Assembly: GCA_040752575.1 (NCBI GenBank)
Contig: JBFMGK010000067.1
Coordinates: 1,931-65,930 of the forward strand
Length of the DNA stretch: 64,000 bases
Source: Candidatus Bipolaricaulota bacterium
GTDB taxonomy: Bacteria > Bipolaricaulota > Bipolaricaulia > UBA7950 > UBA9294
Reading direction: 5' to 3'
Notes under the pieces: model-generated
Databases searched by the model: none
What the model was told of the DNA's origin: nothing
The model's input: only the letters and a program-made list of their open reading frames with translations
Shown: in pieces, positions 113 through 5,057 of the stretch
Numbering within the stretch: position 1 is the stretch's first letter
Layout: every line of letters starts with the position of its first letter
Position numbers and translations under genes: made by a program

Positions 113-1096
113 TCACAGGACTCGATTCTCCTTCCAGAGCCCGTCCAACAGGGAACTGACGCTGACTCCTTCCGCCGCGCCTCGGAAGTTCAACACCACC
201 CGATGGACAAGCGCCGGACGGAAGACGGCTTCGATGTCGAGCAGGCGAACGTTGGGCTGTCCGGCAAGGAGCGCGTGCGCCTTCGCGCCGAGGATCGCTG
301 CGATCGCAGCCCGAGGACTCGCTCCGTACTCGACAAACGAGCGCACGTCCTGGGTCGCATGAGGATGATCGGGATGCGTTGCCAAGACAAGACGGACAAC
401 GTGCTCCCGCAAGGGCCTGGCCATCGGGATCTCCCGCACCGCCGCCTGTGCCGCCAAGAGCGCCTCGGCATCCGCCACCGCGTCGGGGAGCCGCAGGGGC
501 GTCTTCTCCGTCGTTCTCTCCGCGATCTGAAGGAGCTCTCCCTCCGTGGGGTAGCCGACCGTGACCTTAAACAGGAAGCGATCGACCTGTGCCTCGGGAA
601 GCGGGTAAGTCCCCTCCATCTCGATCGGGTTCTGCGTCGCCAGCACGAGGAACGGCGCGGCAAGGGCGTGCGTCACGTGGCCGACGGTGACGGTCCTCTC
701 CTCCATGGCTTCGAGGAGCGCGGATTGGGTCTTCGGCGTCGCACGGTTGATCTCGTCAGCCAGAACGACGTTGGCGAAGACCGGCCCCGGCGAAAAAGCG
801 AACCGCCGCCCCCCGCCGTCTTCCGAGAGGATGTTCGTCCCGACGATGTCCGCGGGCATGAGATCCGGGGTGAACTGGATCCGCGAGAAGCGCAGCCCGA
901 GCGCGCTGGCAAGGGATCGGACCAGCAACGTCTTGCCGAGCCCCGGCACCCCTTCGAGCAAGAGGTGACCGCCGCACAGAAGCGCGGCAAGGGCCATGGT
1001 GACGACCCCTTCCTGGCCGACGATCACCTCGTCGACAGCCCCTCGCAGGCGCTGGGTCAGTGCATGAGATCGTTCGATGGCGGTCTCGTGAGTCAT
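113..1096 (-). CDS. moxR: MoxR-family AAA+ ATPase
   Basis: 327 aa. Walker A GVPGLGKT and Walker B DEINRA motifs, with the typical MoxR length and C-terminal helical domain. The ATG at 1096 overlaps the upstream gene's stop (ATGA). Confidence 0.9.
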   Translation of the reverse strand: MTHETAIERSHALTQRLRGAVDEVIVGQEGVVTMALAALLCGGHLLLEGVPGLGKTLLVRSLASALGLRFSRIQFTPDLMPADIVGTNILSEDGGGRRFAFSPGPVFANVVLADEINRATPKTQSALLEAMEERTVTVGHVTHALAAPFLVLATQNPIEMEGTYPLPEAQVDRFLFKVTVGYPTEGELLQIAERTTEKTPLRLPDAVADAEALLAAQAAVREIPMARPLREHVVRLVLATHPDHPHATQDVRSFVEYGASPRAAIAAILGAKAHALLAGQPNVRLLDIEAVFRPALVHRVVLNFRGAAEGVSVSSLLDGLWKENRVL

Positions 1097-2577
1097 GGTT
1101 CTCCTTGCGTGATGGTCTCGAAATAGACCCTGACAACGTCGTGACGACTCGTGGGGAGATCCCGCGCGACGAGGAGCGTTCGCAGCGCCTCGCCGTCGAA
1201 TCCAGGACCTCCCACGACATCCGCCGCGTCCGCCGGCGGCTCGAACGGGATGCCTTTCGTGAAGAACCGGCGCAGGTCTCCGCTCGCGCCGAGTTCCGTG
1301 AGGAGCTCGCCAAGGACGAAACCCGCTCCGCTCGAGCGGGAGGGAGGGTCGTTGTCCGGGCGTCGGGACGCGGTACCTCCTTGCTCCTCGGGCGGAAAGG
1401 CCACAGAGCCGAGATCGTCGCTGTCGATCTGCGCATCCGACAACGCAACTTGGCCGGGCGCTTCGGGGACGCCGTCGCTCGACGTTCCTTCGAGACTGCC
1501 TTCGGCCAGCGCGCGTTCCGCTTCGCTCCCGGAGGCCTCTTCTTCGTCGCCGCGCCCGCTCTCCAGGGGAGGTTCTTCCAGGTCCTCGGCCGCCGCGACG
1601 CCCGCGCCGCCGAGCAGCCGCCTTGAAGCCTCAAGCTGATCCTCGAGCTTCGCAGCGTCCTGTTCGTCGATCATGGCGAGGAGAAGCTGGCGCAACCGGG
1701 GATCCGGCACGCTCTCTGCCATCTCCCGTAGCGCGGCCTTGTCCTCGTCGGTCAATTGCAGCCCACGGCCCGAGTTTTCCTGGCCGCGCCGCGCGATGCG
1801 CGACAGGAGATCCGACAGCGACTCACCCGTCCCCGCGTCGCCCGCCGACCTCGCGCCGGCGTCCGTCTCCGACGGCTCGCCGAAGACCGTGGCCGAAGGC
1901 GGGGTCGGCAGAATCTCCGCCAGCGCGTCCTCATAGGGCGCTGCGAGCTCGCCTTCGCTCGAAGACGCCCGCGCGACACCGGTCGAGAGCTCACGGGGGG
2001 TGAAACTGGCCGCGCGCTCCTTAGAGATCTCGACCCGCGCTTCCTCGTACCCCGTCTCCTCGGCGGGAACGCTACGTGCCGACGGAGCCTCGGTCGTACG
2101 TTCGCCGACGGTCCCCACCGTGAGCGCAAGGGCGAGGGCCAGCGCGCTGGCTCCCGCGATCAGAACATCGCGAGCGCGAAGCCGCACGACGCGTCGCCAG
2201 GGCCACTCGATCTTGCCGATCTCGTCCTCGACCCGGCAGCGGAGTTCGGACGCCCCCCCCCGGCAGCGAAGTTCGTGCCAGGAGCAGAGGCGCTCGCCCG
2301 TCCCCAACGCCAAATCCACCGAGAGGAGCAGCCGCGGGATATCCACGCGTCGCCTCCGGCCGAGGAGGAACCCCAGTGCCCCAGAAGCCGCAACCAGCAC
2401 CGCAAGGCAGAGAACGAGCTGCCGAGGGACAGCCAGGCCGAGAAACCGCTCTGCAAGCGCCAAAGCGAGCAGCAGCCCGGCCGAGATGGCGAGCGCGCCG
2501 CTCGCCGTTCGGAAGCCGAGGTGCCTGCGATGAGCGCGGAGGATCCTCTGCTCGAGTCGTACGGGATCAAGTGGCAT
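1093..2577 (-). CDS. hypothetical membrane protein with a long acidic low-complexity linker (MoxR-associated)
   Basis: Translation shows two N-terminal TM segments, a third TM near residue 150, and then ~250 aa of D/E/A/S/G-rich low complexity. ATGA overlap with moxR. The start is uncertain (ORF-track start 2628, second Met at about 2577). Confidence 0.5.
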   Translation of the reverse strand: MPLDPVRLEQRILRAHRRHLGFRTASGALAISAGLLLALALAERFLGLAVPRQLVLCLAVLVAASGALGFLLGRRRRVDIPRLLLSVDLALGTGERLCSWHELRCRGGASELRCRVEDEIGKIEWPWRRVVRLRARDVLIAGASALALALALTVGTVGERTTEAPSARSVPAEETGYEEARVEISKERAASFTPRELSTGVARASSSEGELAAPYEDALAEILPTPPSATVFGEPSETDAGARSAGDAGTGESLSDLLSRIARRGQENSGRGLQLTDEDKAALREMAESVPDPRLRQLLLAMIDEQDAAKLEDQLEASRRLLGGAGVAAAEDLEEPPLESGRGDEEEASGSEAERALAEGSLEGTSSDGVPEAPGQVALSDAQIDSDDLGSVAFPPEEQGGTASRRPDNDPPSRSSGAGFVLGELLTELGASGDLRRFFTKGIPFEPPADAADVVGGPGFDGEALRTLLVARDLPTSRHDVVRVYFETITQGEP

Positions 2578-3214: not shown

Positions 3215-5057
3215 GCTTCACCTCCGCGACGATCACATGAACGCTGCTCACGCGCGTCAGCGTCCCCGGCGACGATCTCGCCGAGCGAACCTCGCCCGCC
3301 ACAAGCCACGCGTTGCCCTCGCCCGCCAGAAGCGGCGCCACAACGGTCAGGACGCGGTCAAGTGCTGGGTTCAGAGCGTACTCAGGATACGCCGTCACGT
3401 GGGGCAAGTCTTCGACTCGAACCCGGTCTTCACCCGGCTTGACCGCGGGAAGGCGGTAGGCGCGGCCTTCCGTGACGAGCCACGCCGCGGGCCATATCTC
3501 CGGCAGGCGGCTGGCCAGACGCAACGTGCCGTCCTCGTTCAGCGTCGCCTCAAGCTCTTCGCCCGCGTCGGCACACGCGGCAAAGAGCCGCCGCTCATGC
3601 GACGCGAGCTCGAAGCGAACGACGCCTTCGGCGACCTCGTATGCGGCCGGTGCGGGAGGACCGGTCAACCGGGAGATCTCATAGGGCGTCCCGCCCAGCG
3701 GAAGCGCGACCTCGCACACCGCCCGCGTTGCCGACTGGAGAGAGGAGCAGGCCAGGCTGACGCCGACCGGTCCCAGCCAGGAGACCCGCACATCGGCGCG
3801 ATAGACGTCGCTCACCGTATGGGGCAGGCCATAGAGCAGGGCCCCTGCACTCAGCGCAAGGCTGACGGTCACAAGCCACGCGGCGGCGCGCCGCCTTCGG
3901 GCCGCCCAGCGGGTAAGCCCCAGGCAAAGCGCCAGGAGCGACCACGCCGAGACGGCGGACGGCCGGTCCAAGGCCATCGCCTCGAGAAACTCGTCCGTTA
4001 CGGTCTCGAGGCTCAGCGTCTGCGCTCGCGGCACAAGCCGGCGCACCACCTCCGCATCGCCGGCCGTGAGCGCATCCGGATCTCCATCGATCAGGGTGAC
4101 GGTTCCCATCCCGTACCGTCGCGCGAAGATCCACGGCTTGCCCTCCCGTTCAGCCAGGATCGACGCCCCCTCCCGAAGCTGCGGGCCCTCTCCCTCGGCG
4201 TCGCTCCGGTCGACGGTCCATGGCGATCGGGCGATCGGCAGGAGATCGCGCAACCGTGGGGCATCCAGCAGCGCGAGATCCTCGCCCCCGAGAACCGCGA
4301 GCGATCCTCCCGCGACGACCCAACGCGCCAACGCATCCCACGAGGCACTGCCAAGCCCGCCGGGGATCACGCCGATCCAAACGCTCTCCGCCGCGGCGTA
4401 CGCTGCCCAGTCGGCGGGCAGGTCCGCCGCATCGAGTGCGACCACCGACTCGGCCAGCAGCGCAGGCAGCCGTCCCACGCCGACGGCAAACGGCACCGCT
4501 CGCTGGCGCGCGCGCAGGTTGACCTCACGCTCCGCGACGACGACCCTATCGGCATCCATGAGTCTCAGGACCACGGGGAAGACCGTTTCGTGAACCAGAA
4601 GGACGCCGCGGTACGAAGCGCTCGCCGCCGGGGCCAGAGCGATCTCCACGTCCTTGCGCGCCTGGGGCTCCAACGGGCTCCCCGCAACTTGAAGAACCTG
4701 CAGAGACACCGCCTGACGTTCAGCCGGCGTGCCCTCCACATGCAACGGAGCCGGCCGCCCGGGTACGACGTACCCGCCAAGCCCGAGCGTCGCATCAAAC
4801 CCCGCTGCGACAAGAGAACCCAGCCCGCAGAGAACGGCCGCGGAGAGAATCGCGAAGCAAGCCAGTCGATGCAGGCCCGCGAACGAGAGGAGGCGAAGCG
4901 CCTCCGCGGCGGGTCCGCCGCCCGAGCACTGCCTCTCTGCCGCCCGCCTTATCGTCACGTGACGACTGTACCGCCCCGACCGCTCCCAGAACGAGGCCAA
5001 CCCCGTGGGAGGGCGAGACATCGCGCGTCGACGCCGAACAGCCCCGGCGAGCCCCAT
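3207..5057 (-). CDS. hypothetical membrane-anchored protein, DUF4350/GldG-like domain suspected
   Basis: 616 aa. N-terminal TM, a large domain with GGSLAVLGGE-type glycine motifs, a central TM pair and a C-terminal domain. ATG at 5057 lies 21 nt after the OppF stop. The family assignment is from memory of MoxR neighbourhoods, not a search. Confidence 0.45.
   Translation of the reverse strand: MGLAGAVRRRRAMSRPPTGLASFWERSGRYSRHVTIRRAAERQCSGGGPAAEALRLLSFAGLHRLACFAILSAAVLCGLGSLVAAGFDATLGLGGYVVPGRPAPLHVEGTPAERQAVSLQVLQVAGSPLEPQARKDVEIALAPAASASYRGVLLVHETVFPVVLRLMDADRVVVAEREVNLRARQRAVPFAVGVGRLPALLAESVVALDAADLPADWAAYAAAESVWIGVIPGGLGSASWDALARWVVAGGSLAVLGGEDLALLDAPRLRDLLPIARSPWTVDRSDAEGEGPQLREGASILAEREGKPWIFARRYGMGTVTLIDGDPDALTAGDAEVVRRLVPRAQTLSLETVTDEFLEAMALDRPSAVSAWSLLALCLGLTRWAARRRRAAAWLVTVSLALSAGALLYGLPHTVSDVYRADVRVSWLGPVGVSLACSSLQSATRAVCEVALPLGGTPYEISRLTGPPAPAAYEVAEGVVRFELASHERRLFAACADAGEELEATLNEDGTLRLASRLPEIWPAAWLVTEGRAYRLPAVKPGEDRVRVEDLPHVTAYPEYALNPALDRVLTVVAPLLAGEGNAWLVAGEVRSARSSPGTLTRVSSVHVIVAEVKRG

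Follow-up and report, generated by a model that had tools for sequence, protein, structure and literature searches.

A MoxR ATPase at the edge of a Bipolaricaulota sequence window overlaps a DUF58/VWA gene and very probably belongs to a membrane-associated MoxR-VWA operon

The stretch of DNA analysed here (the window) comprises 64,000 nucleotides (nt) of contig JBFMGK010000067.1 from Candidatus Bipolaricaulota bacterium (assembly GCA_040752575.1). We studied the block of genes at its left end, which encodes a MoxR-family AAA+ ATPase and three membrane proteins that we call p616, p215 and p511 after their lengths in amino acids (aa). An earlier reading of the same DNA, made from the letters alone (the sequence-only reading), had reported four co-directional genes including MoxR at 113-5057. 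We recovered all four as open reading frames (ORFs) of the minus strand and each of them is a real gene with conserved homologues. The same reading held that the MoxR ATPase had no VWA partner. This was not the case: a DUF58/VWA gene with a DxSxS motif overlaps the MoxR stop codon by 4 nt and leaves the window after 38 codons. The positions of all features are given in Table 1.

The ATPase itself is a clear case. It matches AAA_3 with an E-value of 2.7e-63 (212 bits, cutoff 27), AAA_lid_2 with 3.1e-14 (52.9 bits, cutoff 22.7) and also AAA_5 with 5.7e-16, and a Walker A motif (GVPGLGKT) and a Walker B motif (LLADE) can be read off the sequence. With both scores above gathering, the two Walker motifs and the C-terminal lid it is a member of the AAA_3 plus AAA_lid_2 class. 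The MoxR proteins that take its place in the related loci are all 66-75% identical to it.

The partner gene starts with a GTG at 116-114, which overlaps the MoxR stop codon TGA (115-113) as GTGA, and the frame stays open for 38 codons up to the window edge. The translation of this edge ORF is VTDRLLDEAFLAGLAGLRVISRGRRKGRLAGLHASPRT. Using a chimeric query, in which the 38 residues of the window were completed with the corresponding sequence of a relative, we found P0030, a 293-aa NCBI protein annotated as DUF58 domain-containing protein of Candidatus Bipolaricaulota bacterium. The edge ORF is identical to residues 1-38 of P0030, except that the GTG initiator is read as V and not as M. P0030 is encoded on a contig of 71,496 nt, and so are P0001 and P0007, two NCBI hypothetical proteins from a Candidatus Bipolaricaulota metagenome-assembled genome (MAG) which equal p616 and p511, respectively, at 100% identity and bear the locus tags AB1778_08665 and AB1778_08655. 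P0030 matches DUF58 with an E-value of 4.6e-43 (147.4 bits, cutoff 23.4) and VWA_2 with 4.5e-8 (34.1 bits, cutoff 27), and its residues 87-91 (DLSAS) are the DxSxS motif of a putative metal ion-dependent adhesion site (MIDAS). In four related loci (L005, L007, L009 and L012) a peptide 59-66% identical to VTDRLLDEAFLAGLAGLRVISRGRRKGRLAGLHASPRT likewise comes immediately behind MoxR, and the corresponding ORFs encode 293-aa DUF58 proteins (1e-38) with VWA_2. Through the edge ORF and P0030 the ATPase thus has an adjacent, co-directional VWA/DUF58 gene, as in a canonical MoxR-VWA pair. The missing partner was an artefact of the window edge, because the DUF58/VWA gene opens at 116 and its 38 codons inside the window correspond to the start of P0030.

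The motif D-x-[ST]-x-[ST] is absent from p616, p215 and p511, as the sequence-only reading had noted, and no VWA, DUF58 or CoxE family matched these proteins at E<=1, nor did any VWA family match 11-13 relatives of each. That reading had named a VWA or MIDAS domain inside the 511-aa or the 616-aa protein as the observation that would overturn it; none was found there and the VWA domain lies in the next gene instead. DUF4129, SpoIIM and other membrane families of MoxR neighbourhoods gave only noise at E<=10 in 11 relatives of p511 and 12 relatives of p215.

All four junctions overlap: p616/p215 by 8 nt, p215/p511 by 11 nt, p511/MoxR by 4 nt (ATGA) and MoxR/DUF58 by 4 nt (GTGA). Four overlapping junctions are the pattern of a translationally coupled operon. 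A promoter and terminator scan, which was otherwise uninformative, showed no terminator-like site on the minus strand.

Table 1. Genes and protein regions at the left end of the window
Feature	Position	Strand	Details
p616	3207-5057	-	616 aa as longest ORF, ATG at 5057
p616 central DUF4350/DUF7408-like (GATase1-like/GldG-type) domain	4023-4490	-	family conservation and remote family matches
p215	2567-3214	-	215 aa, GTG start
p511	1093-2628	-	511 aa as longest ORF
p511 acidic low-complexity linker	1327-2103	-	about 258 aa
MoxR-family AAA+ ATPase	113-1096	-	327 aa, ATG start
DUF58/VWA partner gene, 5' end	1-116	-	38 codons, GTG start at 116, gene ended by left window edge

For the comparison with relatives we gathered 39 loci by scanning collections of genomes and metagenomes with the p616 family and by looking up individual homologues. 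The close relatives come from Bipolaricaulota MAGs, some of which are labelled Thermotogota. (Three of the nine genome loci, L008, L009 and L012, carry the label Thermotogota or Thermotogae, probably through taxonomic mislabelling of the MAGs.) A check of the four-gene arrangement for co-occurrence had been proposed along with the sequence-only reading: the order p616-p215-p511-MoxR is kept in the 22 close-relative loci that extend past p511, and also in distant relatives. The count of 22 overstates the independence of these loci because several are near-duplicates from different samples. In half of them (11 of 22) MoxR is followed by DUF58, then by a 596-aa protein with BatA_N and VWA_2 and then by a double-VWA protein of 864-868 aa. 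Seven loci (L001, L006, L008, L010, L011, L013 and L031) have no DUF58 gene; there the BatA_N plus VWA gene begins about 70-120 nt after MoxR and is again followed by the double-VWA gene. DUF58 seems to be dispensable or replaceable within one lineage. The DUF58, BatA-like and double-VWA proteins of the relatives carry the DxSxS motifs DLSAS, DGSAS and DCSPS plus DRSAS, respectively (DRSPS plus DRSAS in L006). Apart from L027 and the distant L017, the relatives that extend far enough beyond MoxR have BatA-type genes. In the relatives the double-VWA gene is the last of the cluster, and the next gene encodes SBP_bac_5 or an aminotransferase. At the other end the gene upstream of p616 is not conserved (Opp genes in the window, Peptidase_S66 or others elsewhere), which marks p616 as the first gene of the unit. 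A hidden Markov model (HMM) of p616 found no paralogue among all ORFs of the related loci and the window.

The arrangement reaches far beyond the close relatives. Two loci with a GC content of 72% (L014 and L015) encode distant p616 relatives (E 1e-8 to 1e-15, about 25-30% identity) and show the same order of seven genes, with proteins of 666/682 aa, 254/252 aa with five transmembrane (TM) segments and 523/500 aa with three TM segments, followed by MoxR, DUF58, BatA_N plus VWA and a protein of 929 aa. The last protein (L014:10900-12826 and L015:12582-14327) combines two VWA domains with GATase1_like (PF07090). As GATase1_like and the central domain of p616 fall into one broad superfamily, the seven-gene operon of these two loci encodes two such ectodomains. 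The third genes share the TM pattern of p511, the motif ADLAL..KQRLSTAWEF after the second TM segment and a C-terminal RRYF, and their linker is charged, though without a net acidic character. In L014-L016 the HMMs of p215 and p511 gave no more than weak matches of 10-15 bits. The case for a homology between p511 and the distant third gene would rest mainly on the shared motifs and TM pattern and on size and position. As for p215, nothing beyond position, size and TM count linked it to the distant proteins of 252-254 aa. In a further distant locus (L017:5839-11936) a p616-like protein of 899 aa, possibly fused to its polytopic partner, is followed by a 487-aa protein, MoxR and DUF58, and no BatA/VWA genes come after. 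This suggests a core of five components to which the BatA-type genes are optional. The conserved core thus consists of the p616-like protein, the polytopic protein, the protein of about 500 aa, MoxR and DUF58. It spans Bipolaricaulota to unrelated high-GC lineages.

A few loci depart from the common arrangement. In L027:7766-10494 only about 59 residues of MoxR are matched (7766-7942) and the double-VWA gene starts as early as 7924, which points to the loss of most of MoxR, DUF58 and BatA or else to a misassembly. L028:7987-10613 and L029:5910-8539 keep intact p616 and p215 genes, but their p511 homologue has a length of 158 aa. No MoxR, DUF58 or VWA gene lies within about 9 kb downstream, where unrelated ORFs are found; these two loci represent a lineage with a broken module.

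The sequence-only reading had described p616 as a two-TM protein with a GGxLxxLGG-type motif and had guessed at a DUF4350 or GldG-like protein. The motif is present as GGSLAVLGG at residues 250-258, with G250, G251, L253 and G258 unchanged across 13 relatives. Conservation within the family is highest in the segment WDALARWVxxGGxLxVxxGxDxxLLDAPRLRDLLP, which lies in the central domain. The topology turned out differently. An AlphaFold2 (AF2) model, based on 6 sequences and of low confidence (predicted local distance difference test, pLDDT, 47), predicts three TM helices, one forming an N-terminal anchor and two forming a central hairpin (368-409) whose connecting loop is rich in Arg. From the N-terminus the chain would run through the membrane anchor, a beta-sandwich, an alpha/beta domain at about 190-345 and the TM hairpin to a C-terminal domain rich in beta-strands. 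The positive-inside rule would place both large domains on the extracytoplasmic side.

The family assignment of p616 is a matter of remote matches. For the p616 of the window there was no match in Pfam or NCBIfam at E<=1, no match to DUF7408, and none to DUF4350 even at E<=10. Among the family members 12 of 13 match DUF4350 (PF14258), always in the central region, with 17-23 bits (threshold 30.4) and E-values between 1e-4 and 8e-3, and two close relatives match DUF7408 (PF24157) at E of about 0.02. An exhaustive profile search with the p616 family returned 385 cluster representatives at E<=1e-3. Of 74 distant relatives, 35 match DUF7408 (best 1.1e-7), with P0223 reaching 27.0 bits and hence the gathering cutoff of 27, and 29 match DUF4350 in the homologous region (best E 1e-5). 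Faint matches to GATase1_like and IFT52_GIFT fall in the same region of the distant relatives. These sub-threshold matches are consistent with p616 being a genuine remote homologue of the DUF4350/DUF7408/GldG-type GATase1-like superfamily, though not a formal member, and to that extent they support the earlier guess. For GldG (NCBIfam TIGR03521) and ABC_transp_aux we obtained no NCBIfam match at E<=10 in 13 members, apart from one irrelevant model. A profile of the p616 family alignment did not match any sequence in the PDB, and the AF2 model showed no significant Foldseek match against the PDB at E<=0.001. The generic Ig-like or helical matches that Foldseek returned for p616 and p511 were disregarded as not significant.

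p215 was correctly described as a polytopic membrane protein, with 5-6 hydrophobic TM segments in the hydropathy profile. An alignment of 12 relatives contains the invariant motifs LPY and SPxGA. These 12 members gave only noise-level Pfam matches at E<=10, p215 itself has no match in Pfam or NCBIfam at E<=1, and its profile matched no PDB sequence. It is a conserved orphan family.

The same holds for p511, which is also a conserved orphan family. Its description as a protein with N-terminal TM segments and about 250 aa of acidic low-complexity sequence proved accurate: an acidic region of about 258 aa (56 D+E, 24 K+R) comes after three N-terminal TM segments. The AF2 model (11 sequences, overall pLDDT 49) places TM helices at 5-46, 52-74 and 125-154 and predicts, with good local confidence, a four-helix bundle at 254-323 (pLDDT 75-87), which sits inside the acidic stretch of an otherwise disordered chain. 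The basic loop between the second and third TM segments holds the strongly conserved RLLLSxDLALxTGERLxSxHEL, and a conserved block RRFFTKGxPFEPP...VRxYFExIT lies at the C-terminus. The long acidic tail is probably extracytoplasmic. Whether the linker is a recent low-complexity expansion had been raised as a question. In all 11 aligned relatives, at an identity of about 35%, it measures 249-258 aa, carries a negative net charge (-18 to -32) and contains conserved islands. Apart from one 23-nt match at chance level we found no tandem DNA repeats in this stretch. The constant length, the conserved islands and the lack of tandem DNA repeats show that the linker is ancestral and not a recent expansion. 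For p511 there was no Pfam or NCBIfam match at E<=1, no profile match in the PDB, no Foldseek match of the AF2 model against the PDB at E<=0.001, and only noise-level Pfam matches at E<=10 in the 11 relatives.

Some of the gene starts are ambiguous. The NCBI models of p616 and p511 are shorter than the longest ORFs, with 583 aa and a GTG start at 4958 for p616 (3207-4958) and with 494 aa and an ATG start at 2577 for p511 (1093-2577). Candidates for the p616 start are thus the ATG at 5057 (616 aa), the GTG at 4958 (583 aa) or a later codon. A later start is possible because the homologues begin at about residue 60-66 of the long ORF, where M-TRRRRR precedes the TM anchor. The block had been said to begin 21 nt after an Opp operon. 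This distance holds for the longest p616 ORF but becomes 120 nt with the NCBI start, and given the ambiguity of the start the true distance is 21 nt, 120 nt or more. The upstream genes are of the Opp type by their Pfam matches to ABC_tran plus oligo_HPY and to BPD_transp_1. One Opp-type permease (window 7123-8685, minus strand) has 520 aa as longest ORF, of which BPD_transp_1 covers residues 333-518 only; its N-terminal region of about 330 aa is unusually long if the start is correctly called. A component of a peptide-type ABC transporter adjoins the cluster both in the window, where the Opp set lies upstream (5079-9566), and in L006, where SBP_bac_5 lies downstream (13342-15162). ORFs of about 580 aa that come after the VWA gene in L008 and L011 may be of the same kind. 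As side and genes differ, this is probably a loose association of neighbourhood and not of function.

Taken together, a membrane-associated MoxR-VWA system is very probably encoded here by one long operon, of which the block would be the promoter-proximal part. The operon would read p616, p215, p511, MoxR and DUF58, and then, going by synteny with the relatives, BatA_N plus VWA and a double-VWA protein of about 865 aa. A cytoplasmic MoxR hexamer or ring would use ATP, via the soluble DUF58 protein as VWA/MIDAS adaptor, to assemble or remodel a complex. This complex would comprise the membrane-anchored VWA proteins together with p616, p215 and p511, and the bulk of these proteins would lie outside the cytoplasmic membrane. 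The whole would then act as an envelope-associated assembly or remodelling machine, as has been predicted for neighbourhoods of DUF4350, MoxR and vWA. These steps are drawn from established knowledge of MoxR/VWA pairs (Snider and Houry 2006, as cited in PMC5700661), and the gene set, its coupling, its order and its domains come from the present analysis.

Several points weigh against this interpretation. Only the first 38 codons of DUF58 are inside the window; the remainder of the gene and everything beyond it lie outside. The link to P0030 consists of 38 identical residues together with the matching contig of 71,496 nt, the organism label and the synteny, and the continuation with BatA and VWA genes in this genome is deduced from the relatives only. 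Seven related loci have no DUF58, so it is not obligatory in the lineage. The DUF4350 matches of the relatives stay below threshold and the p616 of the window gives none at E<=10. The AF2 models of p616 and p511 are poor (pLDDT 47 and 49) and have no significant structural matches. To our knowledge no experiment has defined the function of such operons, and we know of no mechanism or substrate established for them in any organism. A complete deletion of bat in Leptospira had no detectable phenotype (PMC3557215).

We considered three other explanations. The first is that p616, p215 and p511 form a separate unit, for instance a transporter accessory module similar to GldF/GldG, which merely stands beside an independent MoxR-DUF58-VWA cassette. 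The place of p616 in the DUF4350/GldG-type superfamily would fit such a module, as would the small polytopic p215, one relative of which has a noise-level match to ABC2_membrane_3 (E 1.5), and L028 and L029, which keep p616 and p215 with a truncated p511 and without MoxR, demonstrate that the link can be broken. However, all junctions overlap, including p511/MoxR as ATGA, and the order of p616-like protein, polytopic protein, protein of about 500 aa, MoxR and DUF58 persists down to about 25-30% identity and at a very different GC content. The conserved set also contains no gene for an ABC ATPase, and the Opp genes are not conserved neighbours. We therefore regard a separate unit as improbable.

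The second explanation follows the sequence-only reading: an orphan MoxR that works with three novel membrane proteins instead of VWA/DUF58, and hence a new MoxR architecture. The region 113-5057 indeed contains neither a VWA/DUF58 domain nor DxSxS, and seven related loci truly lack DUF58 directly after MoxR. Yet in those seven loci BatA_N plus VWA and then the double-VWA gene are still found, and every complete locus pairs MoxR with a VWA protein, the sole anomaly being L027, where a truncated MoxR runs into the double-VWA gene. For this window the explanation is refuted by the DUF58/VWA gene, whose start at 116 falls within an overlap with the end of MoxR, and we consider it very unlikely. 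Lastly, there is next to no chance that the locus is a conflict or anti-phage 'ternary' MoxR-vWA system (bpMoxR/VMAP) with the membrane proteins as effectors: MoxR matches bpMoxR at 2.9e-11 and one p511 relative matches VMAP-M0 (E 0.015), but AAA_3 scores 212 bits against 43 bits for bpMoxR, only one of 11 proteins matches VMAP, and at noise level, the Pfam and NCBIfam matches include no beta-propeller, effector or nuclease domain, and the gene order is conserved across many lineages in the manner of a housekeeping cluster.

The operon is therefore a further case of the known, widely conserved MoxR-DUF58-VWA type of membrane operon and not a new architecture. Of the sequence-only reading the partnerless MoxR did not stand, whereas the orphan status of the membrane proteins and the remote DUF4350/GldG-like assignment did. 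The rule that MoxR goes with VWA is reinforced, because its apparent exception disappears once the window edge is considered. For window-based scans this means that the ORFs at the edge need to be checked before a partner of an edge-abutting gene is called absent. What is left of particular value are p215 and p511, two conserved but uncharacterised proteins that belong to a widespread system of unexplained function. Despite the deep synteny p616, p215 and p511 have no curated family assignment, and their fixed order with MoxR and DUF58 over very large distances makes them good candidates for the missing clients or scaffolds of MoxR. A more far-reaching proposal, which we put forward tentatively and think rather unlikely, is that the core (the p616-like protein with a DUF4350/DUF7408 ectodomain, the 5-6-TM protein, the three-TM protein of about 500 aa with a long, charged and disordered stretch and C-terminal RxYF, MoxR and DUF58) forms a distinct, ancient five-component envelope machine with BatA/VWA as optional additions. 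p215 and p511 would then be undescribed but functionally essential, and the machine could be the bacterial counterpart of the archaeal secretion or remodelling system predicted by Makarova and colleagues.

Among known systems, the GldG/ABC_transp_aux/IFT52 'GIFT' proteins would, going by the faint matches of the distant p616 relatives, resemble p616 in having an ectodomain of the GATase1-like alpha/beta superfamily with flanking TM anchors; in contrast to GldG, the conserved gene set includes no ABC ATPase or permease partner of the GldA/GldF type. Operons with MoxR, DUF58 and BatA-type VWA genes have been described in Bacteroides, spirochaetes and Rhizobium (PMC5700661; PMC3557215). The Bacteroides operon has been tied to aerotolerance and the Rhizobium cmd operon to envelope and morphology (PMC5700661). 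Like these Bat/cmd-type operons, which run MoxR (BatI)-DUF58-BatA-BatB, the relatives of the window cluster encode MoxR, DUF58, BatA_N plus VWA and a further MIDAS VWA protein. We found no genes for BatC (TPR), BatD or BatE (SH3/TPR) in the related loci. Compared with the Bat type, p616, p215 and p511 are additional genes ahead of MoxR, and the second VWA protein of the relatives is large, carries two VWA domains and, in the distant relatives, ends in GATase1_like.

The closest parallel for the membrane proteins comes from Makarova, Galperin and Koonin (2015), who found DUF4350 (arCOG01314, GldG-like flavodoxin fold) together with a COG0714 ATPase, vWA and proteins of 2-3 TM and 5 TM segments, and predicted a secretion or membrane-remodelling complex for these neighbourhoods (PMC5898192). 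Much as in the window, where p616 would carry a remotely related domain, an anchored extracytoplasmic protein with a DUF4350/GldG-type domain occurs there with MoxR and vWA, and p511 and p215 are of the same general kind as the accessory proteins with 2-3 and about 5 TM segments. The differences concern mainly p616 and the VWA partner. p616 is sub-threshold for DUF4350 and has an extra N-terminal beta-sandwich, the TM hairpin and a second, C-terminal beta-rich domain. The system of the window comes without Ig-like S-layer proteins, and its vWA partner is a soluble DUF58 protein and not a secreted Ig plus vWA protein. Finally, the cluster belongs to bacteria, namely Bipolaricaulota and others, and in the relatives BatA-type VWA genes are attached to it.

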